Part shown: positions 1 to 45,787 of the stretch, piece after piece
How positions within the stretch are numbered: position 1 is the first letter of the stretch
How the letters are laid out: the number at the start of each line of letters is the position of its first letter
Assembly: GCA_965198175.1 (NCBI GenBank)
Contig: OZ240245.1
Span: 3,675,030-3,739,029, forward strand
DNA length: 64,000 nt
Reading direction: 5' to 3'
Origin: Candidatus Poribacteria bacterium
GTDB taxonomy: Bacteria; Poribacteria; WGA-4E; PCPOR2b
Program-made: the position numbers and the translations under genes
Notes under the pieces: generated by a model
What the model was told of the DNA's origin: nothing
Databases searched by the model: none
Seen by the model: only the letters and a program-made list of their open reading frames with translations

Positions 1-168
1 GTCGGAACCTTAGACAAATACGGGAAGACGGCGGTGATGCTCAGTATTACTGAACACGGCGGGTATGTTAATGTGTACGGCAAAGGCGAGGGCAAGGCGG
101 TGATTGGAATCAACGAATACGGCAACGGCGTTGTCAACACGTGGGATAAAAACGGGTATCGGCAGTGA
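1..168 (+). CDS. partial CDS, 3' end only: C-terminus of an unknown protein with G/Y/N-rich strand-like repeats
   Basis: Frame 1 is open from the window edge to the TGA at 166-168 (..GGYVNVYGKGEGKAVIGINEYGNGVVNTWDKNGYRQ*). No start lies inside the window. It is not recognisably a Cas protein. Confidence 0.25.
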   Translation, partial: VGTLDKYGKTAVMLSITEHGGYVNVYGKGEGKAVIGINEYGNGVVNTWDKNGYRQ

Positions 169-310
169 TTGGCAATAATGTTCAGACATATAATGTCCCG
201 AATGCACGCTATGGTTCGGCTAAAGTAAAAGGAGGCGGTTGATGGATGCAATACCAGAGAGGCTAGACGGGGCGGGGCGATTGCTCGGTTCAAGTATGGC
301 AAATAAATGG

Positions 311-339
311 TTGACAGGTGAGAAGTAATCTGTTACTCT
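311..339 (+). promoter_or_regulatory. candidate sigma70 promoter facing the CRISPR-like array (TTGACA, 17-nt spacer, TACTCT)
   Basis: The -35 hexamer TTGACA lies at 311-316 and a -10-like TACTCT at 334-339. The region just upstream (172-310) is partly AT-rich and non-coding, like an array leader. The -10 is weak. Confidence 0.25.
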
Positions 340-612
340 AAGAATATCACAGTCGGTGTGGGGTGCTACGGCCGCCAATCCCGGTGGCCGCCCACACAAC
401 ACCTTTAGCACGGTGTATGATTGTGAGACTGTTGATTCCCAATACTTACTTACAATTAAGAGTTTTGCATCAATTCAACAGAACTGTTTAGTGTTCCAAA
501 TAAGTATCGCGTTAGATGTGACAGGCGGAAAGGTGTACTGGACGACTGTAGGCTTTTCCAGCGGCATCCAGCAAAGGTGGTACGGCGAAAGTGAATCTGA
601 TTTTCGCAAATC

Positions 613-650
613 GGTTTTCTGCGGAAAACAGGGGGGTACTTGCGAAACTT
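613..650 (+). repeat. 38-nt conserved element, copy 1 (..TTTCTGCGGAAAACAGGGGGGTACTTGCGAAACTT), followed directly by a repeat-tail-like TACGGCTGAAAG
   Basis: It matches 827-864 at 33 of 38 positions. The two copies sit in different reading frames of the overlapping track ORFs, so the conservation is not due to coding. Confidence 0.5.
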
Positions 651-767
651 TACGGCTGAAAGGACGGTATAACAGGCTGAAAACAGGGTGAAGTCTCTCA
701 ACCAGAATTTCACCAGACACCGCATAAAACTAGATGGGACACAGGTTGGAAGCAATGTTAGGGGTAG

Positions 768-804
768 GTTGCACTCTTTGACGCGATTACAAGCGGACTG
801 AAAG
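768..804 (+). repeat. CRISPR repeat R1 (perfect consensus)
   Basis: The 37-mer is identical to 1833-1869. Confidence 0.7.
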
Positions 805-826
805 AGGCATTAACACAGAGAAAATC

Positions 827-864
827 GTATTTCTGCGGAAAACAGGGGGGATTTTGCGAAACTT
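827..864 (+). repeat. 38-nt conserved element, copy 2, 22 nt downstream of R1; its G6 tract and TTG overlap the predicted start of ORF 854-1240
   Basis: It matches 613-650 at 33 of 38 positions. Confidence 0.5.
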
Positions 865-1240
865 AACAAATAACGTGGATGCGACCGCGATGAAAACGGG
901 GGAGCGCCTCAAGCGCGAGCGGCGGGTCTATGGTCGTTTGTACTTCCGCCGCTTGCACTTCCACAACGATTCATTTTGGCTTGTGTCGTTTCCCAGTCGC
1001 AAGGTTTTTGACAATTGCAAGCGTGCGGTCGAGGTGAGGCGGCTGCTAGGCGGGGCGTATCACTGCCGTTTGGAACGCATGGCTGCCAAAGACGCCAAGT
1101 GTGACGAATTAGTAATGGCCAGGCAATGCCATCACTACGAACCGGCGTCGATGATTGCCCTCGTCGAATACTTAGAACGTGATTGGAATGGCACGCCCCA
1201 ATGTCCTGAATATCATTGCATTCCGCCTCTGCCCGATTGA
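854..1240 (+). CDS. hypothetical Arg-rich and Cys/His-rich small protein (117-128 aa) embedded between CRISPR repeats
   Basis: The ORF runs from a TTG at 854, or an ATG at 890, to the TGA at 1238-1240. It contains several Cys/His clusters (CHHYEP, CPEYHC) that could bind metal. A degenerate repeat starts immediately after its stop codon. Confidence 0.4.
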   Translation: MRNLTNNVDATAMKTGERLKRERRVYGRLYFRRLHFHNDSFWLVSFPSRKVFDNCKRAVEVRRLLGGAYHCRLERMAAKDAKCDELVMARQCHHYEPASMIALVEYLERDWNGTPQCPEYHCIPPLPD

Positions 1241-1278
1241 TTGACACAATCGCAGACGCGGCAAAGCGGCTCTGCGGA
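1241..1278 (+). repeat. degenerate CRISPR repeat (TTGaCAC..GACGCGg-CAAaGCGGcTCTG)
   Basis: It keeps the TTG-CAC, GACGCG and CAAGCGG blocks of the repeat in the right order and at near-correct spacing. It starts 1 nt after the stop of ORF 854-1240. Confidence 0.45.
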
Positions 1279-1343
1279 ACTCGACCGACGGACGAACTAG
1301 TGAAGTCTTTTTTGGAGGCGATCAACTACGCAGAGGTTAGAAA

Positions 1344-1649
1344 ATGTCAATAACCTCACGAAGCTATACTATAGGGGAGGAGGTGATCAATCAATGGCAA
1401 GCAAAAAACGACCTGTTTACCCTGATAACCTGCCGAGCAAAAAAGAAGGAGCCAATGCGGGTAAAGGTAGAACAAACAACCCTAACCCAAAACACGGGAA
1501 GGCTCGTGACAAGTCTACATCTCGCAAAAAGTAGCATTATCGCCCTCAGGGAAGGCTTGGCTTACAATCTTTCCTTGAGGGCTAAGGATGCAAATCAGAA
1601 ATATCTGTTCCACTATGGTGGATGTTTGCGTAGGAGGAAATCATTATGA
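1344..1649 (+). CDS. hypothetical small ORF from the track (101 aa), with an alternative 46-aa Lys-rich ORF from the ATG at about 1394
   Basis: A strong SD (GGGGAGGAGGTGA) sits 7 nt before the ATG at about 1394. My hand translation of the printed sequence around 1437-1444 disagrees with the track by one A. With six A's the short basic ORF MASKKRPVYPDNLPSKKEGANAGKGRTNNPNPKHGKARDKSTSRKK is intact. Confidence 0.25.
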   Translation: MSITSRSYTIGEEVINQWQAKNDLFTLITCRAKKKEPMRVKVEQTTLTQNTGRLVTSLHLAKSSIIALREGLAYNLSLRAKDANQKYLFHYGGCLRRRKSL

Positions 1650-1759
1650 ACGACTACCGACGATGGGAAATACAAAATCCGATGCCGTGGTGGAAGATTC
1701 TCTTAATCTGGGTGGTGGCAGGGATTTTTTTTTGCCTACTCCACGGGCTGGGTTGTGAT

Positions 1760-1796
1760 TAAAAAAGACAGTAGAGAGTGACTAGCGGACTGAAAG
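1760..1796 (+). repeat. degenerate CRISPR repeat; the 3' 13 nt TAGCGGACTGAAAG are conserved
   Basis: It ends in GCGGACTGAAAG and lies exactly one 36-nt spacer (1797-1832) upstream of perfect repeat R2. Confidence 0.5.
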
Positions 1797-1832
1797 AACC
1801 ACAAGCCCATAGCCTTGATTCACTTGCTGAGA

Positions 1833-1869
1833 GTTGCACTCTTTGACGCGATTACAAGCGGACTGAAAG
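1833..1869 (+). repeat. CRISPR repeat R2 (perfect consensus)
   Basis: The 37-mer is identical to 768-804. Confidence 0.7.
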
Positions 1870-1904
1870 CGACGAAACGTGGACGTTTAAAGGAGAATTG
1901 AAGG

Positions 1905-2234
1905 ATGAAAAATAAGAATGAATTAGGCGGTTGCGGAACATTCGCTGTGATCGTATATGTAAGCGTAGTAGGTATCATTGCCGTTATTTGGATAATAGTA
2001 GAGGGTATACCTTATGTTGCAAAAGGCTTTTTGAAAGGCTTAAATGCTGTGGAAACTCGTGTTGGACCAACAGTTCGTAGAATAACCAACGAATCTACTT
2101 TACAAGATTTAAGAGACGATTACTACCATGGCATGAAAACCCCAAAGGGCTGGGACGCTGGCGAGTGGTACAAATACAAAACCGAAACCCCTGGAAAAGC
2201 ACTCCGATACCTTGACCGCTTGGCAATGGATTAG
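1905..2234 (+). CDS. hypothetical small membrane-anchored protein (109 aa; one N-terminal TM helix and a Lys/Tyr/Trp-rich C-terminal domain) embedded in the array
   Basis: The SD AAAGGAG sits 9 nt upstream of the ATG. A hydrophobic helix GTFAVIVYVSVVGIIAVIWIIV is present. Confidence 0.5.
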   Translation: MKNKNELGGCGTFAVIVYVSVVGIIAVIWIIVEGIPYVAKGFLKGLNAVETRVGPTVRRITNESTLQDLRDDYYHGMKTPKGWDAGEWYKYKTETPGKALRYLDRLAMD

Positions 2235-2267
2235 CGCATTGACAACTTTTTAACTTGAGGAGACTTT

Positions 2268-2489
2268 ATGCCACGAACCTTTTATAGTCGTTCCGATATA
2301 GTTGGCACCATCTCAATGCACAATATGCAAATTACAGATACGTTAGACCAAATCAAACGTGCCTTATCCGCTTATGGAAAAGACGCCGAACTTGTTGAAT
2401 GGGAAAATGAAGTTGAGGAGTTATTAAACACGCTCAAATCTAAGGCAAATACTTATGAGAAGGTTTTTAAGATTCGTCCTCTTCAATAA
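2268..2489 (+). CDS. hypothetical small acidic helical protein (73 aa), 33 nt downstream of 1905-2234; the pair may form a small operon
   Basis: The SD GAGGAG sits 8 nt upstream of the ATG. The 33-nt intergenic stretch looks like a vestigial repeat. Confidence 0.45.
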   Translation: MPRTFYSRSDIVGTISMHNMQITDTLDQIKRALSAYGKDAELVEWENEVEELLNTLKSKANTYEKVFKIRPLQ

Positions 2490-2575
2490 GGGAGATTAGC
2501 GGCATCTTCTGCTAATAGTCGTGCATTTACTTTACTGAGTATTCTGTCAGCAGCATCAGTAAGCATGTGGAAAGC

Positions 2576-2612
2576 CGCACTACCTTTGCCGCGATTACAA
2601 GCGGACTGAAAG
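2576..2612 (+). repeat. CRISPR repeat R3 (5' 12 nt diverged, 3' 25 nt perfect)
   Basis: The sequence is ..CTTTGcCGCGATTACAAGCGGACTGAAAG. A 36-nt spacer (2613-2648) follows. Confidence 0.65.
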
Positions 2613-2648
2613 ATTAGAACCCCTGCGCTAAACGCAAGCGATGGAATC

Positions 2649-2685
2649 GTTGCACTCTTTGACGCGATTACAAGCGGAATCACAA
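2649..2685 (+). repeat. CRISPR terminal repeat R4 (first 29 nt perfect, last 8 diverged)
   Basis: The sequence is GTTGCACTCTTTGACGCGATTACAAGCGG followed by aatcacaa. This is the pattern of a degenerate trailer repeat. Confidence 0.65.
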
Positions 2686-3060
2686 TCCAATAGAACGAAT
2701 GTACTCGTAGGCCCAGTAGGTGCGTAGCGTTTACGTCCAAGCTTGAGCCCAGATAATCTGTCATGTGTTTGTTGGCGAAATAGATAAAGACAACCCGAAA
2801 ATGCCAATCAAAGCATTGACATTAACTACGACTCCCAACGGCGGAAGCCATCACCATATACAACAATGAAGAAGAGTCCGTTGTTCGGATAGACATTGAC
2901 GATCGCGAGAACCCCTCTATTAACTGTTAACAAATCACAAGGATGCGTTTGCACCTGTCATTGAAAACGTGACGAAAACCCAGAAACCCAGTAAGTGAAT
3001 GAATTCTCGCGTGTGGTCCGCCATTCGCTTTAACGAAAAATAACAAAATGATAAAATATC

Positions 3061-3090
3061 TTGACAACAGATGATACCATCCCGTACAAT
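3061..3090 (+). promoter_or_regulatory. near-consensus sigma70 promoter (TTGACA, 18-nt spacer, TACAAT)
   Basis: The -35 is at 3061-3066 and the -10 at 3085-3090. It would start transcription at about 3097, toward the 3.1-3.6 kb non-coding or small-ORF region and the 3891 gene. Confidence 0.4.
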
Positions 3091-3615
3091 AGAAGCATTA
3101 ATCTTATGACGCTCTTTAAAAGCTGATCGGCAAGCCCAATAAGAGGCAGCCGGCATCGTCTTTGAACCCTAGACCGCAACAGATAGGCAGCACGAGTCAC
3201 TGACTACTCGCCACTGCTTTTCCTGTGAACAACCCCTTATTTGAATAACCACCGCGCAAGCGGGCAAGACAAACCCGAATGAGGCAGTCTTGAATCTAAA
3301 ACTGTCGCTTTTGGGTTTTTTTTGCTCGCTGCACCAACGACTGAAGCTTCAATGCCTCAAATTACACATGCTGAAAATGGATTACTATCCAAATCCAATC
3401 GCCTGAAACCGCTCTACAACTGGGTTGAAATTACTCGCATTTTATTCTTAATCCATTTCAAAAAATTTTCACATCGCCCGAACCCGCTCCACTACGAGAT
3501 CTCGGCCCGGAAAGAGGGAATTTCTGACCGCCAAAAATGGATTAGAATAGACTGAAGCCCAATCTTAAAGCAATGAGGTGAAAAAAATGCGCAAACAAAT
3601 CCAAAATGAAATCAG

Positions 3616-3722
3616 TTTTTGTAGGTTGGGTTGAGCGGTGATGATGAAACATGTGGACTATGACGAATCGGTTTGTTGGTCAATTGAATTCGAGAATTGT
3701 TGGATGAAGCGAAACGCAACGC
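3616..3722. repeat. left arm of an imperfect inverted repeat of about 105 bp (partner at 4990-5098)
   Basis: Positions 3616-3677 against the reverse complement of 5035-5098 match perfectly over 20- and 27-nt blocks. The match continues to about 3722 at roughly 80% identity. Confidence 0.6.
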
Positions 3723-3890
3723 TTTTTTATGCTTGAGATTGTGTTGAACGGGGTACGTGAGCAGAAAAACTACGGCCTAACTTCGCTATGGTGAACTGCA
3801 GAAACTAACGCAGTCGCTATTCGCTCAGTTGATCTCAACCCAACCTACAAGAACTACAAAAGCTAACGCTAAAGTAAGGGGGATTTTAAG

Positions 3891-4616
3891 ATGATTCGTG
3901 TATTTGCATCATTGGTGCTTGTCTTGGTATGCACAACCTGCGTTTTCTCTCACCCTGTTACCCTGAGATTCAATGTTACAAGTTTAACGGAAGAATCACA
4001 TATAGTGGTTCATGGCGTAGTTGAAAGCTTACAATATGTGTGGCGTGACAATCTTGCCCCTCGCCGGACGACGGACGTTACAATTAGAATCCAAGACATA
4101 CCCAAAGGCGAACCCAACCTTGGAGACGACCGAGTTATTTTCATGATTCCTGGCGGACGGGGATTAGAGGTGCCTCATACACCCAAATTTGACGTAGGAG
4201 AAAAGGTGTTGCTATTCCTGTTTTACACTCCAAGAGGGCCAGAAGCATGGCGGAAAATTCATGGTGGGCTTGTCGTAATCAATAAAAGGGAAGTGGCAAA
4301 TGATACGGAGGTATCTATTCCGTACACAACATATAAGGATAGGGTAGACGGTGGGAGCCCTGAAGTTATAGATTTCGATAAACCCATACATCTTCCTATC
4401 GATTTGGTGGTTAAGCTAGCAGAAGCTGCGTCTAAAGAGCCCCTACTGGTTTTAAGAGCCGAGGAACCAATAATCGAATTTGCTAAACACGCAGAGTGGA
4501 TTGAGTCGAGTAGGTTTACTAAGCCGGGCAAGGACTTATTGGACAGCGTGAAAGCAGATATTGATGAAATTCTAAAATTGAGCGCAAGGAAGGAGGAAAA
4601 CGATAATAAAAAGTAG
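3891..4616 (+). CDS. hypothetical secreted protein (241 aa) with an N-terminal signal peptide
   Basis: The SD GGGGG sits 8 nt upstream. A signal peptide MIRVFASLVLVLVCTTCVFS is present. The gene lies inside the inverted-repeat-bounded cassette. Confidence 0.55.
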   Translation: MIRVFASLVLVLVCTTCVFSHPVTLRFNVTSLTEESHIVVHGVVESLQYVWRDNLAPRRTTDVTIRIQDIPKGEPNLGDDRVIFMIPGGRGLEVPHTPKFDVGEKVLLFLFYTPRGPEAWRKIHGGLVVINKREVANDTEVSIPYTTYKDRVDGGSPEVIDFDKPIHLPIDLVVKLAEAASKEPLLVLRAEEPIIEFAKHAEWIESSRFTKPGKDLLDSVKADIDEILKLSARKEENDNKK

Positions 4617-4989
4617 AATAGCAATGATACTGGTGCTAATGGCTAATTTCTAGGCAACGATGGAATGAACCGGGTCCAGTGGTCGTAAGTTAGGTAGAGC
4701 AGTTTCGAAAAGGGTTGCTGCATAAGAAGGATTTGGTTTCGGGGGCTGAATTGGTCGTGATTCAATCGAAACCGAACTCTCTTTATGTGCTTGACAATGT
4801 GATTAGCGGGGGCCGTGAGCGGAAATAATGTGGAGAAAGCTATCGTACTCGCTATTCGCTCGCTTGATTCTATTCGGTCAATTGAGTTGTTCGCTCAGTT
4901 GATTGTATGGAATGCGTAACGGTAAATTTCCGGCGGGACGAATTTGGAACTTCGGAGAAAACTATCGCCTTCGCTGTCCGCTCAGTTGA

Positions 4990-5098
4990 TCGTTGGGTTT
5001 CGCTCCATCGAACAAATCTCGAACGCAATTAACCGACAAACCGATTCGTCATAATCCACATGTTCCACCACACCCGCTCAACCCAACCTACAAGAACT
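4990..5098. repeat. right arm of the inverted repeat (partner at 3616-3722)
   Basis: It is the reverse complement of the left arm. The internal direct repeat GCTATTCGCTCAGTTGAT occurs three or more times inside the cassette, at about 3795-3830, 4838-4905 and 4955-4990. Confidence 0.6.
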
Positions 5099-5287
5099 TA
5101 TCCGCATTGGACTGGGGCAGTAAGTGTAGAATCAATTAAAGGGATTCGAAAACGAACCTTCCAGCGTTTTGCAGTTGACACTCTAACCACATACTAATAT
5201 AATGTGTTGTACGAGTTGTACTGATTTTACGATTCAAATCGAGATTGTCTGAACCACTACGATTTTATATCGTCTACGGAATTCAAG

Positions 5288-6241
5288 ATGACAAACTTTA
5301 GAGCAATTTATCTGAATACTTTTATTGTTTTCACGTTCTCGATTGTGATGGCTGGTTGCAATACGACCAAACTCACCGTCAACCAAACAGTAAAGGTTTT
5401 TGCGAAAGCGTCCAAAACCTACGACAAGGAGGCGGACCTCATGCTAGCGGATGCTGGCATCATGTCAAACCTCAAGACATTTGAGGGATTGCAGGAGATT
5501 GTGCCGGAGAATGAGCGACTCCTGACGCTTACGGCGCGATCGTTTGCCTCATATGCGTTTGGCTTTGTTGAGGACAAAATGGAGGCAGCAGCGGCAGTTG
5601 GCGATTTCGAGACCGAATCTGAGATGCTCGCCCGGGCGATCGATTTTTATGAGCGTAGCAAACGGTCTGGTTTGAAGGCTTTGTCAAAGGCGAATTCGGC
5701 GTTCCCGGAAGCACTTGATGGCGAGCCGGAGAAGTTGGCACGCGCGTTAAAGCGATTCAAGAAAACACACGTGCCTGCGCTTTTCTGGACCGCATATGCG
5801 TGGGGTAGGGCGATTAATTTACAGCAGGACGATCCGATGCTGCTTGTCGATCTCGCCAAAGTAGAGATGATGATGCGCCGTGTTATCGAACTTGATGAAT
5901 CCTTTTACTTCGGCGGGGCGCATCTGTTTTATAGCGCCTACTACGGCAGCCGTTCACCACAACTGGGCGGCAACCCTGAGAAAGTGAAGCAACATTTACG
6001 AAAAGTGGACGAAATCAACAATGGCAAATTTCAGTTTAGTAAGTTGTTTCTCGCCCGCTATTACGCTTATCCTATTCAAAACCGGACGCTCTATGAAAAG
6101 ACGCTACAAGAGATTCTTGATGCACCGATCGACGTGTTCCCGGAACATCGGATATCAACCGCGATTGCTAAAGCGCGTGCTGAGCGTTGGCACGCCCAAA
6201 CAGACAATCTTTTCGGTGAAGCAGATGCCCACGATGAGTAG
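5288..6241 (+). CDS. TatT-like TPR lipoprotein, the T component of a TPAT-type TRAP transporter
   Basis: It has a lipoprotein signal sequence (..VMAGC). The body is helical and TPR-like. It sits immediately upstream of the DctP, DctQ and DctM homologues. Confidence 0.5.
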   Translation: MTNFRAIYLNTFIVFTFSIVMAGCNTTKLTVNQTVKVFAKASKTYDKEADLMLADAGIMSNLKTFEGLQEIVPENERLLTLTARSFASYAFGFVEDKMEAAAAVGDFETESEMLARAIDFYERSKRSGLKALSKANSAFPEALDGEPEKLARALKRFKKTHVPALFWTAYAWGRAINLQQDDPMLLVDLAKVEMMMRRVIELDESFYFGGAHLFYSAYYGSRSPQLGGNPEKVKQHLRKVDEINNGKFQFSKLFLARYYAYPIQNRTLYEKTLQEILDAPIDVFPEHRISTAIAKARAERWHAQTDNLFGEADAHDE

Positions 6242-6346
6242 CATCCAATGAAATGCAGTGGAGAGTTAAGAGCAAGTCTTTGCTCGCCACTAATCACTCT
6301 GCACCATAAAACACTCCACGCATGATTCGCAGCATCTGATAAAGAT

Positions 6347-7399
6347 TTGAGGTTTTTCAGACTGGAGAGACACATGACTCGCTTAACACAAATTTATCTT
6401 GTAATCTTCTCGCTCGCGATCCTTGTCATAATACCCACTGCTAGCGGCAACGAAAAAATTAAATTGGCAACACTCGCACCGAAAAACTCGTCGTGGATGA
6501 AGATTTTTTATGCGATGGGGAAAGAGATTCAGGAAAAAAGCGGCAGTAAGGTAAAGATTCAATTTTTTCCGGATGGGGTGCAGGGAGATGAAATCGATGT
6601 CATTCGTAAAATGCGCGCGGGCTTGCTTCATGCGGGTGCGATGACAGATGTCGGTTTGGGGGAGATTCATCAATCGGTGCTTATTTTTCAAACATTTCGC
6701 CTGTTTAATAACTATGCCGAACTCGACTACGTGCGCGATCAACTGCGGGATGGACTTGAAAAAGCGTTTGATGAGGCGGGCTATGTCCTACTAGGTTGGG
6801 GGGATATTGGTTACTACTATATTTTCAGCAATCATCCGATAAAGACCATCGAAGATCTCCGTGATCCAAGCGTCAAGGTGTGGGTACGGACGGGCGATCC
6901 TGTCTCAGAACACTTCTACAAAACCGTTGATTTCATAGGTGTTCCAGTGTCTGTGCCGCAGGTGCTGTTATCGTTGCAAACCGGGCAGATTAACGCTCTG
7001 ATTGTTTCGCCATTAGCGTGCGTCGCGCTGCAGTGGTATCCTAAGCTGAAGTATATGTCCGACATGCCAATCAGGATTGGAATTGGCGCAACGTTAATCA
7101 CTAAAGGAAGATACAATCAATTACCCGCCGAGGAGCAGAAGATTCTACGCGATACGGCACGACAATATCACCAGAAGCTCATCCAGCGCGTCCGGAATGA
7201 CAATGATAAGTCAGTCGAGGCGTTGACAAAAAAAGCGGGGATGCAGATAGTGACCATCAGCGATTCGGAGCGGGAGCGCTGGAACACGCGATGCGCCCAA
7301 ATGCGTGATGAACTCGCGGGAGAAATTTACCCACCTGCTCTACTTCAACAAGTGAACGCACTACTAGATGCTTATCGTTCAACACATCCACAAGATTGA
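6347..7399 (+). CDS. dctP: TRAP transporter substrate-binding protein, DctP family (TatP-like)
   Basis: It has a signal peptide and typical DctP-family motifs. The true start is probably M at about 6374. Confidence 0.75.
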   Translation: MRFFRLERHMTRLTQIYLVIFSLAILVIIPTASGNEKIKLATLAPKNSSWMKIFYAMGKEIQEKSGSKVKIQFFPDGVQGDEIDVIRKMRAGLLHAGAMTDVGLGEIHQSVLIFQTFRLFNNYAELDYVRDQLRDGLEKAFDEAGYVLLGWGDIGYYYIFSNHPIKTIEDLRDPSVKVWVRTGDPVSEHFYKTVDFIGVPVSVPQVLLSLQTGQINALIVSPLACVALQWYPKLKYMSDMPIRIGIGATLITKGRYNQLPAEEQKILRDTARQYHQKLIQRVRNDNDKSVEALTKKAGMQIVTISDSERERWNTRCAQMRDELAGEIYPPALLQQVNALLDAYRSTHPQD

Positions 7400-7934
7400 C
7401 ATCTGCCAATCAGGTGAGACTTTCAGATTGAACGCCGTCAAACGAATCAATATCCTTCTTGGTAACATCGAAACCGCGTTGCTATGTCTGATTATCCTGT
7501 CAATCGTTGGATTGGGGATACTGAAGATTCTTCTGCGCTATATTTTTCAAATAAGTCTCCTGTGGAACCAAGTTTTACTGCAGCACTTCATATTGTGGCT
7601 AACATTCTTGGGCGCATCGCTAGCCACCTGCGAAAACCGCCATATCAGTATTGATGTCCTCACCCGCTACCTACCGAGGCACCTCGTTCAATGTACCAAC
7701 ATCCTCATTCATATTATCAGCTTTGTTATCGTCTCCATCCTCGCTTATACCGGCTTTGAGTTCATACGCGACGAGCAGATGAGCGGTGCAACACTCGTCG
7801 GCACTATCCCAATTTGGTGGGCGAAGCTGATCATCCCGATTGGGTTTGGATTGATTGCACTTCACTTTGCTCTCCAAACCGTCATGGAGATATTTAGCAA
7901 AACCAAAGGGGAAGCTGCATCATGGGAGCGTTGA
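7368..7934 (+). CDS. dctQ: TRAP transporter small permease, DctQ family
   Basis: It has four TM helices in the DctQ pattern. The start is uncertain, probably downstream of 7399. Confidence 0.65.
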   Translation: MLIVQHIHKIDICQSGETFRLNAVKRINILLGNIETALLCLIILSIVGLGILKILLRYIFQISLLWNQVLLQHFILWLTFLGASLATCENRHISIDVLTRYLPRHLVQCTNILIHIISFVIVSILAYTGFEFIRDEQMSGATLVGTIPIWWAKLIIPIGFGLIALHFALQTVMEIFSKTKGEAASWER

Positions 7935-9214
7935 TTGGGCTCGGTTTGGGCTTGTTTGCGCTCTTAGGCGGCGCATTGTTTGTCCTGCTCGGCGGGTTGG
8001 CGATTTTCGGTTATGCAGCGGCGGGCGATCCGATCAGCAGTATCATTATTGATCTTAATCGCTTGGCGCGCAATCCGACAATCATGACAATCCCGCTGTT
8101 CACCTTCGCCGGCTATGTGATGGCGGAGAGCAACGCCCCCAAGCGTCTCATCGCCCTGGCACAAACGAGTGTTGGTTGGTTGCCGGGCGGTATTGCTGCG
8201 GTTGTGCTGGTGACATGCGCGTTTTTCACGACGTTCACCGGGGCTTCCGGGGTGACAATCATCGCGCTGGGCGGGTTACTCTATCCAATCCTTCGTCAGC
8301 ATTATACGGAACGCTTTTCACTCGGGTTAATCACGACATCGGGCAGTCTCGGACTTCTTTTCCCACCTAGTGTCCCTCTTATCCTCTATGCAATCATCGC
8401 CCAGGTACCGATTGATGTGATGTTCTGTGCAGGGATTCTCCCCGGCTTTCTCCTGCTAGTGATTCTCGTCGGGTACTGCTCTGGCTGGAGTATGTTCAAA
8501 AGGGTCGAACATACCCCCTTTGATTTGCGCGCTTTTGGAGTGGCTCTATGGAATGCTTTGGGAGAAGTACTGCTACCGTTCATTGTGCTTGGTTGTATTA
8601 TATCGGGGATTGTCACAATTGATGAAGCGGCTGCACTGACAGCGATTTATCTGTTGATTGTTGAAATGGTTATCCATCGCGATATTAGTGTCAGGCAGTT
8701 GCCGAAAATTGTGCGAGAGAGCATGCTGCTCGTCGGCGCCATCTTGATTATTCTCTGTATCGCACTGGGACTGACCAACTATCTCGTCACAATCGAATTG
8801 CCGAGCATTGCGCTTGACTGGATTCAAGGGCAGACACAAAACAAGATTGTTACCTTAATTGGACTCAATCTTTTTCTGCTAGCCGTCGGTTGCTTGATGG
8901 ATATCTTTTCCGCCATTGTTATCATTGTTCCCCTGCTGATTCCAATCGCGGAAGGATTCGGGATAGACAAAGCTCACCTTGGTATCATCGTGCTGACGAA
9001 CTTGGAGATTGGCTACTTAACACCGCCCGTTGGCATGAACCTCTTCATCTCAAGCCTCAAGTTTGATAAATCCATTGTTTCACTGTATCGATCTGTGTTG
9101 CTATTCATCGGATTGCTCCTATTCGCACTGATAATCGTCACCTACGTTCCCGCGTTGAGCTTGTGGCTGCCGCGCGTGCTGGGGAAAATGTCCACGCCAC
9201 TGTTGCTTGAATAG
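7922..9214 (+). CDS. dctM: TRAP transporter large permease, DctM family
   Basis: It is a 430-aa polytopic protein with DctM-family conservation. It overlaps the dctQ stop. Confidence 0.8.
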   Translation: MGALIGLGLGLFALLGGALFVLLGGLAIFGYAAAGDPISSIIIDLNRLARNPTIMTIPLFTFAGYVMAESNAPKRLIALAQTSVGWLPGGIAAVVLVTCAFFTTFTGASGVTIIALGGLLYPILRQHYTERFSLGLITTSGSLGLLFPPSVPLILYAIIAQVPIDVMFCAGILPGFLLLVILVGYCSGWSMFKRVEHTPFDLRAFGVALWNALGEVLLPFIVLGCIISGIVTIDEAAALTAIYLLIVEMVIHRDISVRQLPKIVRESMLLVGAILIILCIALGLTNYLVTIELPSIALDWIQGQTQNKIVTLIGLNLFLLAVGCLMDIFSAIVIIVPLLIPIAEGFGIDKAHLGIIVLTNLEIGYLTPPVGMNLFISSLKFDKSIVSLYRSVLLFIGLLLFALIIVTYVPALSLWLPRVLGKMSTPLLLE

Positions 9215-9287
9215 GAAAGATTGCATTATCGCGTAAGTCTGAGTAAATCAGGTGGGTCGCGCAATACTCAACGAGAATTGGTAATTG

Positions 9288-10580
9288 TCAGTTTTTCTGG
9301 ATGTGCTTGGGAGCTAGGGCTGTTAGCGATAAACCGCGTGCGGCTGAATATACCGTCAGCGCCAACCAGAGTCCATGGTTTCCAAGCGGCTTTAGGAAGT
9401 AATATGCTGGCAAGAAGACGAGGAGTGTCGATACAATCATGGCATTTCGCATCGGTTTTGATGCGGTCGCGCCAAGAAATATTCCATCCCAGAGGTATGC
9501 CACGGCATTAATGATTGGGGCAAGGGCGATCCAAATCAAATAGGGGAGCGCTTGTTTCACCAGATCAGTTTTGTTCGTAAAGACATAAAGCAGCGGATGT
9601 CCGAAGAATCCGTAAATCAGACTAAATACCGCCGCTAGGCAAAGGCCCCAGATGAATACATACCGCACCGCCACTCTTAAGTTGTGGATGTCGACGGCAC
9701 CCTTGTACTTACCGATAAGACTTTCCGCCGCAAAAGCGAAACCATCAATGGCATAAGCAAGAAAATTAATGAACTGTAGGAGGATGGTATTGACTGCTAG
9801 AATAATATCGCTCACAGCAGCTGATTTTGCAGTGAAAAACGTATGGGAGAAAACCAGACATAATGTGCGGATGAATATATCGCCACTAATTGCGAAGAAT
9901 CGTTTCAGATCGGGTAGATACAATGCTTCTTTCAGGTTCCACCCCTCCAACAGGTCGCTATATTTTCTACGGTATAGAATAACGGTACACACAAGTCCAA
10001 GGTACTGAGCGATAACGGTTCCCAAGGCGACGCCATTTGATTTTAGCCCCATCGCCTTCACAAAGAATAGGTTGAGCCCAATATTCAGAACGTTCATCAG
10101 GATAGTGATTATCATTGGGTATTTCGCATTCTGGACACCCAAGAACCATCCGTGAAAAACAAAAATACTTAGAGCAGCCGGGGCAGCATAGATACGGACA
10201 TAAAAATATTGACGCGCTAACCGTTCAACTTCGGTGCTGGCATCAATGAGATAGAAACTGATTTTTGCGATATAAGACTGAATTAAAATAAGCAGAACGC
10301 TCACAACAAGCGCAACGAACAGACCTCTTGTAAGAATCAGGATACTTTCTCTCTGGTGGTTCGCCCCATGGGCTTGTGCGGTGAGTCCAGTTGTGCTCAT
10401 TCTGAGGAATCCAAATCCCCAGTACAGCATATTAAAAATGGCTGCCCCAATAGCAACGCCGCCAAGATGTTGCTCTGATTCTAGCCGCCCCATCAAGGCA
10501 ATGTCAACGGCTCCCAGGATAGGAACGGTCAAATTGCTGATGATGTTTGGTATAGCCAATCGAATAATCTGTTTGTTCAT
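9288..10580 (-). CDS. MATE family efflux transporter
   Basis: It has 12 TM helices. The N-terminus IPNIISNLTVPILGAVDIALMGRL is typical of MATE/DinF transporters. Confidence 0.75.
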   Translation of the reverse strand: MNKQIIRLAIPNIISNLTVPILGAVDIALMGRLESEQHLGGVAIGAAIFNMLYWGFGFLRMSTTGLTAQAHGANHQRESILILTRGLFVALVVSVLLILIQSYIAKISFYLIDASTEVERLARQYFYVRIYAAPAALSIFVFHGWFLGVQNAKYPMIITILMNVLNIGLNLFFVKAMGLKSNGVALGTVIAQYLGLVCTVILYRRKYSDLLEGWNLKEALYLPDLKRFFAISGDIFIRTLCLVFSHTFFTAKSAAVSDIILAVNTILLQFINFLAYAIDGFAFAAESLIGKYKGAVDIHNLRVAVRYVFIWGLCLAAVFSLIYGFFGHPLLYVFTNKTDLVKQALPYLIWIALAPIINAVAYLWDGIFLGATASKPMRNAMIVSTLLVFLPAYYFLKPLGNHGLWLALTVYSAARGLSLTALAPKHIQKN

Positions 10581-11339: not shown

Positions 11340-13169
11340 TCAACTATCAAGTCGCCTTTGATTCGTCGTTGTAATTCGATTCTTCGCCCGCTTGGCAGTC
11401 GCTTTCATAAGAACAAAGGAGATTAATAGAATGACTAGCAGCGCCCCGATAATTCCTTTTATGAGTGCATAGGTTTGCTGCTTCCTGACATAATTCAGGG
11501 TAGCTTGGGCTTCTTCATAATTGGTGTCCAAAGCTAGTGCAGCTTCAAGATGTGCTGTTGATTTCTTATAATTCTGATTTTTGAGATAAACAATCCCCAA
11601 ACTGTTATGTGCTTGGGGGTTTTTCGGATTCATTTCTAACAGTTTTTGATATGTCAGTATAGCGCCATCTAAATCTTCGACTAGGCTCTTTTGCCAGCCG
11701 ACTTGCATCAAGGCTGCTTCCAGATTTTGGCTGGCATGCCAACTATCCGGGTGGTATTCCAACGCGCGTTCATAGCACCGTGTTGCTCCCGTCCAATCCT
11801 CTTTGCGCGCGTGCTGTGCGCCCAAATTATTCAATGTTGTTGCAATTCCCACTTGGACTGCTTCGTTCTGGGAATCAATCTCCAAGGCACGTTCATATAC
11901 GCCCAAAGCCTTTTGATATTCTCCTGCCGCATCGTAGGTAACAGCTAGATCATACAGCAGAATATCGGAGAACGGAAACCGCATAAGCCCTTGATTGAAA
12001 CATTTGATTGCTCGTGAAAGCTGATTTGCCTGAAGCAGTTTATACCCCCAACGGTGGTAAGTTGCTAGGAGATTATTGTTCAGTTCGGAAGAATTGGGAG
12101 CAAGCCGTAACGCACGCTGAAAAAAGTTCACCGCCTGGCTAAACTGACCTTGAAGCAACGAAAGCGCACCCAAAGCCCCAAGCACTTCTGCAGTTGGCTT
12201 TGTGCTCAACGCCATTCTATAGTGTGTAATTGCCAAATCGTACATCCTCCTCGACTGGAAGATCTGAGCAAGTTCAACCGCTGAAAAATGGAACGATGGA
12301 TTAATCTCCAGGGCTTTTTGAAAAGCATCAATTGCTGCGTGGTAATCACCGAGGTCCGCATGAACCATGCCCAGAGCGTAGTAGGTCTCGGCAGTGGATG
12401 GTGATGTTTTGATTTCTTCTTGAAGGGCACTAATAGCTTGGTCGTGAAAAGGGGTGTTCACAGGCGTTTTCCGCACCTTCATCCACGTCGCCACATCTCG
12501 CGCTGTCGGTTTTTGAGCAGTCGTAGCGAAATACATCACATCATTTGGATTCTCGCTGTGGCCCCATAATCCGATCGCGTGCCCAATCTCATGCAGCATC
12601 ACAGCTTGAACCACTTCAGATGTGTGCAGTTCCAACGTCCTATCGCTCTGTAGAAAAATCTCGATTTCGACATGAAATCCATCCACGTTTCGAATTAACA
12701 CCGCCTCTCCGACATTCTTATACATCCCGGCTCGACTTCGCCGATGCACCCACTTAAGTCGAATATCCGCCGTCGCAGCGGTTGGTGAAAATCGAAATTG
12801 TAGAAGTCCCTTGGTTGCCTCCTGCCATAGATTTAGAGATTGATTCAACGCTTGTTCGTAAACCCTTGCTAGATCCGCCTGAAGTGGAACAGCTTCCCTA
12901 TAGACTAAAATTACTTCCCGGTCAAACCGTGTCAGACGCCCATTGGAAGCCATCGTGACCCGATCGAAATAGTCATCCGCACAAACAGCATTTCCAATGA
13001 GGATACACACAACTCCGCCAATTACACCGAAAATCCGGAAACGCTGAAATTCGTAAAAACGGTTTCCCATAGCTCTGGTTTTCGTGCGCCCCATCCTTTT
13101 AGCTTTTCGACTTTCTATCCCCCGGTTTCTTCTTTGTGTTGATCCCACTTCCCAACCGCTCCTATTCAT
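11340..13169 (-). CDS. matrixin-type zinc metalloprotease (HEIGHAIGLWGHS) fused to TPR repeats with a C-terminal TM anchor
   Basis: It has the HExxHxxGxxH metzincin motif, more than eight TPR units and a C-terminal hydrophobic helix. The true start is probably an internal Met (MGNRFYEF..). Confidence 0.65.
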   Translation of the reverse strand: MNRSGWEVGSTQRRNRGIESRKAKRMGRTKTRAMGNRFYEFQRFRIFGVIGGVVCILIGNAVCADDYFDRVTMASNGRLTRFDREVILVYREAVPLQADLARVYEQALNQSLNLWQEATKGLLQFRFSPTAATADIRLKWVHRRSRAGMYKNVGEAVLIRNVDGFHVEIEIFLQSDRTLELHTSEVVQAVMLHEIGHAIGLWGHSENPNDVMYFATTAQKPTARDVATWMKVRKTPVNTPFHDQAISALQEEIKTSPSTAETYYALGMVHADLGDYHAAIDAFQKALEINPSFHFSAVELAQIFQSRRMYDLAITHYRMALSTKPTAEVLGALGALSLLQGQFSQAVNFFQRALRLAPNSSELNNNLLATYHRWGYKLLQANQLSRAIKCFNQGLMRFPFSDILLYDLAVTYDAAGEYQKALGVYERALEIDSQNEAVQVGIATTLNNLGAQHARKEDWTGATRCYERALEYHPDSWHASQNLEAALMQVGWQKSLVEDLDGAILTYQKLLEMNPKNPQAHNSLGIVYLKNQNYKKSTAHLEAALALDTNYEEAQATLNYVRKQQTYALIKGIIGALLVILLISFVLMKATAKRAKNRITTTNQRRLDS

Positions 13170-41327: not shown

Positions 41328-42368
41328 CTATCTAGATAGTGTACTTCCCAACTGTTTAATCCAGCCCCAACTCAATGGTTGCTTCCCGGCAGGAGAAACT
41401 GCGAACTCAACGATAAAGTCCGGGGCGAACCACGCCGGAGACCGGTTGAATGGGCCCGCCTGCCCAATTACCGGTAGGTCAAAGCGATTTTCGTGATTCC
41501 CCTTGCCCGCCCCCGCCTTCACTTCGTATATGGTAATCTTCGAGGAACCGCCTCCGAATATGATTGTGGCTACTTCCTTACCGTCCGGGTTCCACGTCAG
41601 ATCCTGCTTTTCTTCCTGGCTAAAAATTTCATAGACATTTTGGGCACCCTCATCGCCGAGTTCGGCGTCCATCACCCATACATTACCGGTCCCATCTCGT
41701 CGCGTAATCCATCCAATCCGGTCCCCGTCGTGCGAAAATTCGGGCTGGATGTCCTCGCCCTTATGATTTGTGAAATTCACCTGGTTGCCACCGTCTGAAT
41801 TCATCACGTAGATGTCTCCGAGCGTCCGTCCTCGTTTGGAAGCGAACGCAATTCGCCGACCATCCGGCGACCATGAGGGCATTCTATCTGGGGCTGGGTC
41901 GTTTGTGAGGTTGGCAATAATATTGCCCTCGACCGACATTACGTAAATTTCGAGGTTCCCGTCCCGATCAGAAGCGATGGCGAGATTTCTGCCGCCAGGG
42001 TGCCAGTCGGGCCAGCTATCTACCCCTTCATGATCGGTGATTCGCCTCAGGTTCTTGCCGTCAGCGTCTACGATATAGATATCGGTATTTTTCTGCGACG
42101 TCGCATGGAACGCAAGTTTTCGGCCATCCGTGGACCATTCAAGTCCAAGCGGCCGCGGATCGTCATTATCTGTTGCAATGTTGAGCAATGCATTCACAGC
42201 GCCTTTCCCTTCGGGATTTGTCAAAAAAATTGTCTCCTCGCCGGATACTGCTATTGTCGCTTCGTTGGGTGCGAGCGCCTGCCCGCCTATGGGTATAACG
42301 AGGTTGATTAGGATTACCAAGTTGGAGAATGCCAAGATTCTCAAAGTTAATCGCGTTCTTTTTTGCAT
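41328..42368 (-). CDS. TolB-like periplasmic beta-propeller (PD40 repeats), paralogue 1
   Basis: It has a signal peptide, repeated WSPDGRRIAF/SPDG motifs and a conserved tail PAWFAPDFIVEFAVSPAGKQPLSWGWIKQLG. Confidence 0.7.
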   Translation of the reverse strand: MQKRTRLTLRILAFSNLVILINLVIPIGGQALAPNEATIAVSGEETIFLTNPEGKGAVNALLNIATDNDDPRPLGLEWSTDGRKLAFHATSQKNTDIYIVDADGKNLRRITDHEGVDSWPDWHPGGRNLAIASDRDGNLEIYVMSVEGNIIANLTNDPAPDRMPSWSPDGRRIAFASKRGRTLGDIYVMNSDGGNQVNFTNHKGEDIQPEFSHDGDRIGWITRRDGTGNVWVMDAELGDEGAQNVYEIFSQEEKQDLTWNPDGKEVATIIFGGGSSKITIYEVKAGAGKGNHENRFDLPVIGQAGPFNRSPAWFAPDFIVEFAVSPAGKQPLSWGWIKQLGSTLSR

Positions 42369-42569
42369 AAGTCTTGCCTCCGCTTTACAATTTAAAAATT
42401 TACGGCAGTCGCCGTTTATCTAGAAAACTACTGAGAACCAATTGGAATAGGAAAACAACTAGAGTCGAGTGTTGTGCTGTAGCTCAATTTCACTTGTACG
42501 CCGCTCCATTTCTGGTGAGGCATGCAGCAGGTTGAATTATCCGTACGATTGGCGAACGAACCGGAACGC

Positions 42570-42899
42570 CTACTCAACCCTGCCAATCTTGGCGGCTTCT
42601 GGCGCCCGCGTCGGCAAATTCTGCTTAGCGAGCTGATCTTCCGGGATATAGTTGGAGTAATCAGAAATTTTACCGTGGGTCAATGAGTAAACAACAACGT
42701 TTGTCATAAACCGATATACGCCTGGAGAGTAGTGTACGGACCTCGTCGGTAGACTTACCGCCTCCATTGCGCACATGTAATCGCGGCGGACTAATAGCAC
42801 CGAAAGCTTTTCACCAACGGAGATTCCTTCAAGGAAATTGCGTTTTGGTGCTTTTGTGCCAAACCAGAAGATATCGAACCCAACTGGCGGGCCGCCCAT
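42570..42899 (-). CDS. TonB C-terminal-domain-like protein or fragment (109 aa), in the -1 frame relative to 42791-43303
   Basis: The sequence ..LEGISVGEKLSVLLV..AMEAVSL..VHYSPG loosely resembles the TonB C-terminal domain. It has no signal peptide or TM helix of its own. It overlaps the upstream ORF by 109 nt. Confidence 0.4.
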   Translation of the reverse strand: MGGPPVGFDIFWFGTKAPKRNFLEGISVGEKLSVLLVRRDYMCAMEAVSLPTRSVHYSPGVYRFMTNVVVYSLTHGKISDYSNYIPEDQLAKQNLPTRAPEAAKIGRVE

Positions 42900-43303
42900 T
42901 TCATAGAAGTTGTTATAGACCTCGTGTTAACGACCTTGGGAACATTAGGATTGATGGGTTGGTTGAGTTTGACGACTTTATTCGAGAATTCGAGCACCGT
43001 TTGGGGCTCTAAGGATTTCGTGCGAACGACTGCAGTGGTTGTGACTCTGGGTTGCACCTGAACCTGTTCAACGACAACGGTGTTATCCGTTGGAATATTA
43101 GGTTTAATCTGTTTGATAACCGGCTTACGAACTTGGGGTTTCGGCGGCTCAGGCAGTTCAAGAACTTGGGCACCGACTAAGTCTTTGAATTGCGGGGTTT
43201 GTGTGACGAGATAAACACCGAGAATCAGCACAGCGACTCCGTGAAGAATCAACGATGTCATCAAGGCACCTGAAGTTTTCTTGGCACTCATCTTCTGCGT
43301 CAC
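42791..43303 (-). CDS. TonB/TolA-like N-terminal part with a cytoplasmic stub, a TM helix and a Pro-rich spacer (170 aa)
   Basis: The hydrophobic helix is ALMTSLILHGVAVLILGVYLV and the Pro-rich stretch is ELPEPPKPQVRKPVIKQIKPNIP. Confidence 0.5.
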   Translation of the reverse strand: MTQKMSAKKTSGALMTSLILHGVAVLILGVYLVTQTPQFKDLVGAQVLELPEPPKPQVRKPVIKQIKPNIPTDNTVVVEQVQVQPRVTTTAVVRTKSLEPQTVLEFSNKVVKLNQPINPNVPKVVNTRSITTSMKWAARQLGSISSGLAQKHQNAISLKESPLVKSFRCY

Positions 43304-44796: not shown

Positions 44797-44987
44797 AGTT
44801 CTTACCTCCTCTTCACGAGTTTAAAAATCACGGCAAGCGCCGTTTCTCTGTCAAAAACTACTTGAAAACAGTTCCCATTAGGTAATAAAACAGGGTAGAA
44901 ATTGTAATACGCCAATTCTGCTTGCGCGTTTCCAGATAAGAAATTGGAAAACGGTAACGACCCAAATCGACCAACGAACCGTGGAAT

Positions 44988-45721: not shown

Positions 45722-45787
45722 CTCCGATTCGTTAAAGGAAGCGTGGTATTGGACTTAAAATTGAACTGCGCTGCCATTTCGCGGGCT

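Follow-up and report, generated by a model that had tools for sequence, protein, structure and literature searches.

Small genes in the spacer positions of a probably decaying orphan CRISPR array of Candidatus Poribacteria

Mini-arrays of CRISPR (clustered and regularly interspaced short palindromic repeats) with a regulatory role on cas or cargo genes are frequent in type I-B loci (10.1101/2023.03.03.530964). In the arrangement named CRISIS, the genes under control are succeeded by a solitary repeat unit that pairs, through its spacer-like part and beside a protospacer-adjacent motif (PAM), with the promoter of those genes (10.1101/2024.12.27.630466). [quoted passage not shown] Solitary repeat units with an RNA anti-CRISPR function are documented in mobile elements (PMC10651486). 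Here we describe a locus of Candidatus Poribacteria in which small open reading frames (ORFs) are bracketed by CRISPR repeats. The locus occupies positions 603-2685 of a 64,000-nt stretch of contig OZ240245.1, referred to below as the window, whose numbering is used throughout. Loci fetched for comparison are labelled L001-L046, and the context 5' of window base 1 was taken from one of them, the sister contig L001. On balance, the region is probably an orphan, decaying array within a variable island, with spacer positions that were filled by recombination with a flexible gene pool and ORFs that are passengers.

Between positions 768 and 2685 the window carries four copies and one fragment of a 37-nt CRISPR repeat, all on the plus strand, in the order R1, 979 nt, fragment, S1 (36 nt), R2, 706 nt, R3, S2 (36 nt), R4; the start-to-start distances between repeats are 1065, 743 and 73 nt. 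R1 (768-804) and R2 (1833-1869) share the same full-length sequence of the poribacterial repeat family, GTTGCACTCTTTGACGCGATTACAAGCGGACTGAAAG, and each scores 56 bits with a covariance model built from 19 repeat variants. R3 (2576-2612) has an aberrant 5' end, GCCGCACTAC, and the model aligns its positions 7-37 only (36.6 bits, from 2582). The terminal repeat R4 (2649-2685) has a degenerate 3' end, with GGAATCACAA replacing GGACTGAAAG, and scores 27.9 bits. The fragment (1784-1796, direct-repeat family D6) corresponds to the last 13 nt of the repeat (AGCGGACTGAAAG) and has lost the 5' arm of the hairpin. The model found no other significant repeat site across the 64 kb; a candidate, very degenerate remnant, GACGCGgcaaAGCGGctctgcggaa, directly 3' of the stop codon of the first gene (plus strand, 1255-1279), was picked out by eye and is not significant by the model. 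The 15-mer GCGATTACAAGCGGA occurs four times against 0.12 expected, which excludes chance and establishes the bracketing repeats as real. Thus, the 15-mer counts and the model scores confirmed the proposal of the first-pass annotation that ORFs are bracketed by CRISPR repeats in this region, and the three ORFs that it had named (854-1240, 1905-2234 and 2268-2489) are all present.

The two spacers of ordinary length, both on the plus strand, are S1 (1797-1832), which is identical in L001, and S2 (2613-2648), which differs from its L001 counterpart by one substitution. The first of the two long intervals, between R1 and the fragment, holds ORF116, ORF46 and ORF38 (each named for its length in amino acids, aa), and the second, between R2 and R3, holds ORF109 and ORF73. 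Both gene-sized intervals are coding, and the regular spacing of a canonical array is lacking; at least three repeats of one family are present, and this family lies beside cas genes in relatives. A leader-type palindrome, TTCGCAAATCGGTTTTCTGCGGAAAAC...ACTTGCGAAAC (D4a, plus strand, 603-650; direct-repeat copy 608-653), lies 118 nt 5' of R1, so that 603-804 looks like a leader followed by its first repeat. The locus resembles cas-less orphan mini-arrays in having few repeats and a leader, and like them it would depend on Cas proteins encoded elsewhere if active; it differs in that half of its intervals measure 0.7-1 kb and are coding, as against spacers of ~36 nt.

The 37-nt element is a true CRISPR repeat, proper to Candidatus Poribacteria, and its family belongs to a type I system with Cas6. 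When the 3' part of the repeat was searched for, with one genome per species, 27 stretches were recovered, and all matches with a full-length repeat came from Candidatus Poribacteria. Copies of the family (consensus GTnnCAnnnnnnnCCGCGATGAAAAGCGGACTGAAAG, with a 4-bp hairpin and an 8-nt handle) line up in regular arrays, as many as 52 repeats being spaced at a period of 71-78 nt (72 nt beside cas genes), and in Poribacteria such arrays adjoin cas3, cas1, cas2 and cas4. At L015 the array comes after cas3 (C-terminal part), cas1, cas2 and cas4, while a cas6 and a cas8b-like gene are present at L042. Within the family the two arms of the hairpin vary together (CCGC/GCGG versus CCCC/GGGG). In JGI metagenomes the repeat pattern was found only in two small arrays and in some single partial matches, and Rfam models run over window positions 1-8000 returned noise only (miRNA and Xist models). 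Comparison of poribacterial Cas1, Cas2, Cas3, Cas4, Cas6 and Cas8b with the 64-kb window by tblastn gave no match below E = 0.3; the same queries gave none at E <= 1e-3 against L001, a contig that includes 8 kb of upstream sequence at the homologous locus. Since neither the window nor the 8 kb upstream in the sister contig has a cas homologue, the array is an orphan. Downstream of it lie TRAP-transporter and other housekeeping genes.

A BLAST comparison of the region with all fetched loci divided it into separate blocks of homology. Segment 822-1207 matches L046 and, within this part, 910-1222 also matches other loci that carry ORF116; 1241-1832 matches the sister contigs only; 1896-2233 matches loci that carry ORF109; and 2253-2583 matches L043-L045 at 92%. 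At L043 the ORF73 frame is broken, a whole 70-aa gene lies on the opposite strand and the homology ends inside R3. The 5' end of R3 continues the homology with the L043 cargo, which identifies R3 as a junction formed at the microhomology GCACT rather than as a diverged repeat. The 3' half of the opposite-strand gene survives in the window (minus strand, 2483-2578), where it is cut at R3; its translation, ending in AAFHMLTDAADRILSKVNARLLAEDAANLPY and the stop, matches the C-terminal half of the whole gene in L043 (10384-10172).

The sister contigs L001 and L002, from ENA, carry the same array. Between L001 and the window there are zero differences over 1036-2387, and the flanks differ by ~1.6-3%. 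The homology with L001 breaks inside the 5' end of ORF116 (at ~900), and the genes that lie upstream in L001, including those for ParB_N and DUF7119 proteins, are missing from the window. The island is strain-variable and lies between conserved housekeeping genes, and its cargo appears to have been exchanged recently. Families that recur in other poribacterial islands are ORF109, ORF116, the ParB_N and DUF7119 pair, and a family with the signature YGG...DKNGYRQ. Members of the latter occur at window positions 1-168 and in L001 (208 aa), L005 (165 aa), L012 (149 and 164 aa), L009 (132 aa) and L039; at L039 a 2-kb stretch brings together a solitary repeat, a YGG gene, an ORF116-like gene and a degraded copy of ORF109. 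The annotated proteins are thus not confined to one genome, and the homologues that could be placed belong to Candidatus Poribacteria or to assemblies with sponge-metagenome-like sample names. No tRNA or att boundary was found at the islands; the only integrase sequence seen was a 172-aa fragment at L009.

Some further features of these families were recorded. The YGG...DKNGYRQ genes lie at L001:4326-4952, L005:10856-11353, L012:15586-16608, L009:8772-9170 and L039:1645-2007 (minus strand); their products, small proteins of one paralogous family, combine a hydrophobic N-terminus with GGYVxVYGK-type internal repeats, carry DKNGYRQ at the C-terminus and gave no Pfam or PHROG match. The ParB_N and DUF7119 pair (L001:7244-8693 and L012:11963-13415; 81% and 68% identity between genomes) adjoins a repeat-flanked ORF116 and is not in the island version of the window. 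The ParB_N gene has PHROG matches to ParB-like families down to E 2.5e-15.

In the sequence of events that we propose, 603-2685 would represent the leader palindrome, four repeats and two ordinary 36-nt spacers of a decaying array, two spacer positions of which would now be occupied by pieces of a small gene pool, one encountered in poribacterial genomes and sponge-sample assemblies only. These pieces would have arrived, and have been reshuffled, through recombination at or in the repeats, partly by homologous exchange between repeats and partly by illegitimate joining at microhomology, as at R3. A mosaic of separately derived pieces points to ORFs that are passengers, not one designed module.

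The second long interval contains the two ORFs that had been annotated as a membrane-anchored and acidic pair. ORF109 (plus strand, 1905-2234; pI 9.0) has one predicted transmembrane segment at residues 14-32 (Kyte-Doolittle 2.98), a total of 10 Trp and Tyr residues and a conserved C-terminal motif, DDYYxGxKTPxGWxAGEWYKYKTETPxK. Its homologues P0002-P0004 are 54-57% identical, with a dN/dS ratio of 0.17-0.27 and saturated dS; the C-terminal domain is also found in a 105-aa gene of L012 and in the degraded copy of L039. Judged from this substitution pattern, ORF109 is a real, selectively constrained protein, with a predicted membrane anchor. ORF73 (plus strand, 2268-2489), which starts 33 nt after ORF109, would encode a helical, mildly acidic protein (pI 5.75, net charge -1.4). 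The only copies seen are one of 99% identity in the sister strain and one of 88% identity in L043-L045, which is split by frameshifts. An exact look-up of the ORF73 product returned no record, and its matches are marginal (UPF0122, E = 0.047; PHROGs of unknown function, E = 0.015 and 0.051). ORF73 is a doubtful, poorly supported gene next to the truncated, convergent one. Of the original description, the transmembrane anchor and the 33-nt gap stand, and the term "acidic" was an overstatement.

Could the two form a conventional toxin-antitoxin (TA) or toxin-immunity pair that sits in the array by coincidence? They are co-oriented and 33 nt apart, each is preceded by a Shine-Dalgarno sequence, and one product would be membrane-anchored and the other helical. 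The pairing, however, is conserved at no other locus. The homologues of ORF109 in L003, L005 and L039 have unrelated neighbours, so the toxin/immunity reading fails the test of synteny; the ORF73 segment occurs elsewhere without ORF109, frameshifted and among different neighbours, and the two belong to separate blocks, the homology of ORF109 ending at 2233 and that of ORF73 beginning at 2253. Neither ORF gave a match of meaningful E-value to a Pfam, PADLOC, PHROG or NCBIfam family, those of TA systems included, or a sequence match in the PDB. A TA or toxin-immunity pair is therefore most improbable here, and the proposal of a toxin/immunity or abortive-infection (Abi) pair found no support. 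Known TA or defence folds were likewise sought and not found: among PHROGs no match at E below 0.01 was obtained for ORF116, ORF109 or ORF73, and Foldseek returned nothing below E = 0.001, the best value for ORF109 being E = 3.1 on a low-confidence model. The AlphaFold2 models of ORF109 (pLDDT 58 overall, 71-83 in the C-terminal helices) and ORF116 (pLDDT 51) are poor, so the missing folds carry little weight either way. Two side observations concern the loci compared here. L043:1-7454 is a defence island with a TIR/Mrr-like protein, a type I restriction-modification system and HEPN_AbiU2, on the same contig as the ORF73-like segment; HEPN_AbiU2 also neighbours the ORF109 homologue in L003.

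The ORFs had also been put forward as candidates for CreTA-like control by repeat RNA. In a CRISPR-supervised toxin or defence module of the CreTA, CrePA or CRISIS kind, crRNA-like RNAs from the two embedded mini-arrays would guide Cascade to repress the promoter of ORF38 or ORF109. Two degenerate repeat-spacer units that could play this part are present, fragment-S1-R2 (1784-1869) between ORF38 and ORF109, and R3-S2-R4 (2576-2685) after ORF73. With the known units the locus shares degenerate repeat-spacer-repeat elements beside small non-cas genes, some of them for membrane proteins, and a type I repeat with Cas6; its architecture superficially fits CRISIS units and type I-B mini-arrays, and the related locus L042 does have cas6 and the cas8b-like gene. 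ORF109 and ORF38 would be small membrane proteins with strong ribosome-binding sites. ORF38 (plus strand, 1646-1761) has one hydrophobic helix (Kyte-Doolittle 2.39) and a strong Shine-Dalgarno sequence, AGGAGG; its stop codon lies ~22 nt 5' of the repeat fragment, and two weak matches to PHROGs of unknown function were found (E ~0.008). Upstream of it, a putative gene, ORF46 (plus strand, 1394-1534), encodes a Lys-rich protein (pI 10.9) behind a strong Shine-Dalgarno sequence, GGAGGAGGTGAT. Both ORF46 and ORF38 had been absent from the list of the first-pass annotation, and both were found only in the sister contigs L001 and L002. For all five small ORFs, comparison with Pfam, PADLOC, PHROGs and NCBIfam yielded nothing usable.

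The spacers themselves did not behave as this reading predicts. Over its full length S1 matched the window at 20-21 of 36 positions, against a null mean of 21.7, with no match above shuffled controls, and S2 matched at or below the null mean. When seeds were searched for on both strands of window 1-5000, every sixth position being ignored, the best score of S1 was 12/15 (at 2678, beside R4), a value reached by 11% of shuffles; S2 reached 11/15, as did ~62% of shuffles. A locus with no match between spacer and promoter and with no cas gene within 64 kb lacks the marks of CreTA-type control. It also differs from these units in having its genes in spacer positions instead of beside a single mini-array, and no cas operon adjoins it, nor was any cas gene seen in the 8 kb upstream in the sister contig. 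Against the reading, too, no toxin match was obtained with PADLOC or Pfam, and the homologues of ORF109 elsewhere have no repeat nearby. We regard CRISPR supervision of ORF38 or ORF109 as quite improbable.

The ORF with the closest tie to the repeats is ORF116 (plus strand, 890-1240), which encodes a small protein of basic character (pI 9.15), rich in Arg and Lys at its N-terminus. The version annotated previously started at a TTG codon (854-1240, 128 aa); the core conserved among homologues begins RRVYGRL, which makes the ATG at 890 a likelier start than the TTG at 854. Six homologues are 61-94% identical and a further one, in L039, is 36% identical; a profile search of 1.84 billion representative proteins retrieved just two ORF116 clusters. 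The dN/dS ratio is 0.27-0.68, the variable sites number 39/29/56 at the three codon positions, and the frame is intact in all copies. By these measures ORF116 is a real and fast-evolving gene, under relaxed or diversifying selection. The idea that its product is a zinc protein, suggested by a CHH (QCHHY) and a CxxxHC (CPEYHC) cluster, both present in the window copy, found no support, as the clusters are not conserved. Across seven sequences only C43, C59 and C80 are invariant; most homologues have other residues in place of C71 and C105, two lack C110 and one lacks H58, and the distant member in L039 is cysteine-free by reading of its sequence. No match to ORF116 was found in Pfam, PADLOC, PHROGs, NCBIfam or PDB sequences, and relatives were found neither in IMG/VR viral contigs nor in JGI metagenomes. 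A kinship with Cas2 was considered and rejected, as hhalign against poribacterial Cas2 gave no relation.

At all seven distinct ORF116 locus types a repeat or repeat remnant lies within 140 nt, on the strand of the gene. In the window the order is R1, a second palindrome copy (D4b), gene; in L001 a repeat, R1', precedes the gene by 133 nt; and in L046 a decayed repeat and a D4 copy precede it. At L009 and L041 one remnant ends ~7-8 nt before the ATG and a second lies over the stop codon; at L012 and L042 a repeat overlaps the 3' end of the gene, and L012 also has D4 upstream. A clear remnant thus overlaps the stop codon of the homologue in L009, L041, L012 and L042. At L039, the locus with 36% identity, a whole solitary repeat lies 101-102 nt upstream. 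The suggestion that the same proteins might be found beside CRISPR repeats in related metagenome bins therefore proved correct for ORF116, in seven locus types out of seven. Between orthologous ORF116 loci, identity is 70-92% in repeat-derived segments, 81-86% in the ORF and 62-77% in other intergenic DNA; these numbers are small, and by them the repeats are neither seen to decay faster nor clearly under selection. The ORF116 lineage has stayed linked to CRISPR repeats and to the CRISPR-leader palindrome.

This palindrome, D4, has the consensus TTCGCAAATCnnTTTTCTGCGGAAAA...ATTTGCGAAA. In canonical loci it is located directly after the cas4 stop codon, or 70-390 nt 5' of the first repeat, and it was found with the cas-adjacent or canonical arrays of L015, L017, L018, L019, L020, L029, L031, L035 and L037 (positions include L015:3792, L017:1109, L019:7689, L020:1690, L029:6895 and L037:3835). 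The copy between R1 and ORF116 (D4b, plus strand, 822-867) is 87% identical to D4a and has a whole right arm and a degraded left arm. D4 precedes a gene of the ORF116 family in three locus types (window, L046 and L012), and the arrangement repeat - GGCATTAACA - D4 - ORF116 is common to the window and L046, at 82.7% nucleotide identity. Among 16 copies of D4 the arms hardly vary, and compensatory changes are absent from every pair; D4 has neither an Rfam match nor covariation. Invariant arms without compensatory pairs fit a protein-binding site better than an RNA helix, and it seems more likely that D4 is a protein-binding palindrome, as predicted from the copies compared, than an RNA structure. 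D4 may be a candidate regulator-binding site common to the arrays and to ORF116. We infer that ORF116 would be expressed under leader-type control and would be a regulator or inhibitor that has the CRISPR system or nucleic acid as its target; on sequence grounds, it is a candidate CRISPR-associated regulator or inhibitor. A promoter considered over the repeat remnant 5' of the L009 and L041 homologues (TTGACA, 16 nt, GATAAA) was set aside, since it was not called by the consensus scan.

In another reading, the repeats would delimit functional gene cassettes. A transcript from the array or leader promoter would be cut by Cas6 at each repeat, leaving messenger RNAs that carry the 8-nt crRNA handle ACUGAAAG before the ribosome-binding site; translation or stability would then be coupled to the Cas machinery, and the cassettes would move by recombination between repeats. 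R2 ends 35 nt before the start codon of ORF109, which has the Shine-Dalgarno sequence AAGGAG. Solitary or remnant repeats elsewhere are likewise followed, after 8-125 nt, by a ribosome-binding site and an ATG, at distances of 8 (L009, L041), 14 (L024), 27 (L023), 37 (L027), 94 (L032), 102 (L039) and 125 nt (L034). Units in which a gene is enclosed by two repeats occur in L032, L041 and L019. L032 runs from a repeat through the gene for a membrane protein with a bacterial PH domain to another repeat and, beyond it, D4; this domain was the only Pfam match among the genes located after solitary repeats of other genomes. Where L009 has one repeat remnant, L041 has two, and an additional 150-aa gene fills exactly the space between them. 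The remnant upstream of the gene is 92% conserved between L009 and L041, versus 77% for neighbouring intergenic DNA, and the covariation of the hairpin across the family also speaks for this reading.

These observations have to be set against others. The fragment at 1784-1796 lacks the 5' arm of the hairpin; the repeat 5' of ORF116 in L046 is 70-79% conserved, and its hairpin and handle look degraded by eye; R3 is a recombination junction, and a truncated gene closes the cargo of the second interval, neither of which an orderly cassette would be expected to show. There is no cas gene in the vicinity, and in a gene-dense genome about half of intergenic sites precede a gene on the same strand by chance. 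We consider functional cassettes of this design unlikely, and equally so the coupling of their translation to Cas and their movement between repeats. It is in the same way unlikely that ORF116 and the small genes are kept as Cas6-excised cassettes, transcribed under the D4 element and gained or lost by exchange between repeats or as gene-sized "spacers", whose expression depends on the state of the Cas system without pairing of spacer and target, with ORF116 as a new CRISPR-associated regulator or inhibitor. Integron cassettes offer an analogy, with short co-oriented genes divided by a structured repeat and presence or absence of genes at the repeats. An integron was rejected as a candidate, there being no IntI or other integrase in the island region of the window and no attC architecture (R''/L''/L'/R', GTTRRRY); the repeat has no GTTRRRY end and a 4-bp hairpin only, and what divides the genes here is a bona fide CRISPR repeat.

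The features of ORF116 invite comparison with anti-CRISPR loci as well. The region might derive from an integrated plasmid- or phage-like element in which the repeats would function as RNA decoys or form a mini-array that relies on the Cas proteins of the host; a place of this kind for the locus is doubtful. Documented solitary repeat units of the Racr type (PMC10651486) set a precedent: as here, repeats lie outside a working array by small, fast-evolving genes of a variable island that has some genes of mobile elements. Sister islands have the ParB_N and DUF7119 genes, and L009 the integrase fragment. ORF116 is small, lineage-restricted and fast-evolving and has no known domains, and the strain-variable island has cargo that is identical between otherwise diverged strains. 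ORF116, and perhaps ORF109 or ORF73, would then be anti-CRISPR or anti-defence proteins under a copied leader control, a role that we hold to be rather unlikely. Racr units are often beside acr genes. The window locus lies on a chromosome and has a leader-like element, and neither viral nor plasmid relatives were found; no relative of ORF116 or ORF109 was seen in IMG/VR, where the sole viral match to the repeat pattern is a single partial one. No aca-type regulator was detected at the window locus, and Pfam revealed no helix-turn-helix partner of the Aca type among the island ORFs scanned. The island is without an intact integrase, att site or tRNA boundary. ORF116 is basic, unlike many anti-CRISPR proteins that mimic DNA, and a leader-like element together with a degenerate terminal repeat is what host arrays have.

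Other poribacterial arrays are interrupted as well. Elements of ~250 nt that resemble miniature inverted-repeat transposable elements (MITEs), with the ends GATCAAGCGA...TCGCTCAnTTGATC, are inserted inside the repeat loop and duplicate CCCGAYGAAAAG. Loci with such insertions are L017 and L019, as well as L020, L029, L030 and L037, and from these the family looks like a transposable element that targets CRISPR repeats at one fixed point of the loop. Copies were located at L017:1780-3570, L019:7301-7130 and 5774-5600 (minus strand), L029:3289-3527 and L037:5059-5710, some of them nested or in tandem; the end motifs are also seen at window positions 3802-3836 and 4837-4993. The window array is interrupted in a similar way to such MITE-bearing arrays, but its inserts lack the GATCAAGCGA...TCGCTCAnTTGATC ends, are protein-coding and have one junction at a microhomology instead of a target-site duplication. 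Two inserts in other, cas-adjacent arrays look like giant spacers: a coding-dense one of 631 nt, with a full repeat on either side, at the distal end of its array (L037:5780-6410), and one of 1.29 kb, also coding-dense, between repeats directly after the leader (L019:7061-5775, minus strand).

Several observations weigh against a decaying array filled with passengers. At a number of places a solitary full-length repeat has a ribosome-binding site and a start codon 8-130 nt downstream on the same strand, and the repeat-derived flanks of ORF116, about as conserved as the ORF and more so than other intergenic DNA, look more like maintained elements than like pure relics. The 631-nt insert of L037 has clean junctions, which illegitimate recombination does not predict. 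Apart from the 172-aa integrase fragment of L009, no transposase or intact integrase was seen that would explain targeting, and the role assigned to ORF116 derives from association. We nevertheless prefer the decaying array, and the mosaic of blocks, the junction at R3 and the narrow taxonomic range of the cargo are consistent with it. The first-pass interpretation is thus partly supported, in its account of genes between repeats, while its specific functional guesses were mostly not borne out.

Further elements were noted around the array. Just 3' of it, 3061-3325 is a candidate small RNA gene, with a near-consensus sigma-70 promoter (TTGACA, 18 nt, TACAAT; 11/12) followed by ~225 nt without a convincing ORF and ending in a long hairpin and a U-run; the fold z-score is -3.2, and there is no Rfam match. 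An inverted repeat of 111 nt, 86% complementary (3611-3721 and 4991-5101), brackets an ORF (3891-4616) for a 241-aa protein that has an apparent signal peptide and matches no family. Copies of the 111-nt element, there as direct repeats (9187-9298 and 12266-12373), flank a 3-kb segment of L003 that includes the ORF109 homologue and HEPN_AbiU2. At window positions 41328-46816 the list of ORFs suggests a tandem duplication, with minus-strand ORFs of 346, 170, 348, 170 and 342 aa, and the covariance model of the repeat gave identical weak matches at 43030 and 45448.

If the region is, as seems probable, what remains of an orphan array, the lesson that it holds is that ORFs between CRISPR repeats need not be CRISPR-controlled toxins. 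Three quick tests discriminate: complementarity between spacer and promoter, proximity of cas genes and conserved synteny. If they hold up, two of the patterns described here would reach further, namely a protein family found only in Poribacteria and tied to CRISPR repeats and a leader element, and the recurrence of gene-sized inserts between whole repeats in several arrays, some of them cas-adjacent. These would point to a new CRISPR-associated or anti-CRISPR protein, or to repeats that serve as recombination or processing boundaries for genes. Poribacteria are uncultured, and sequence leads of this kind are the main route into their defence biology.

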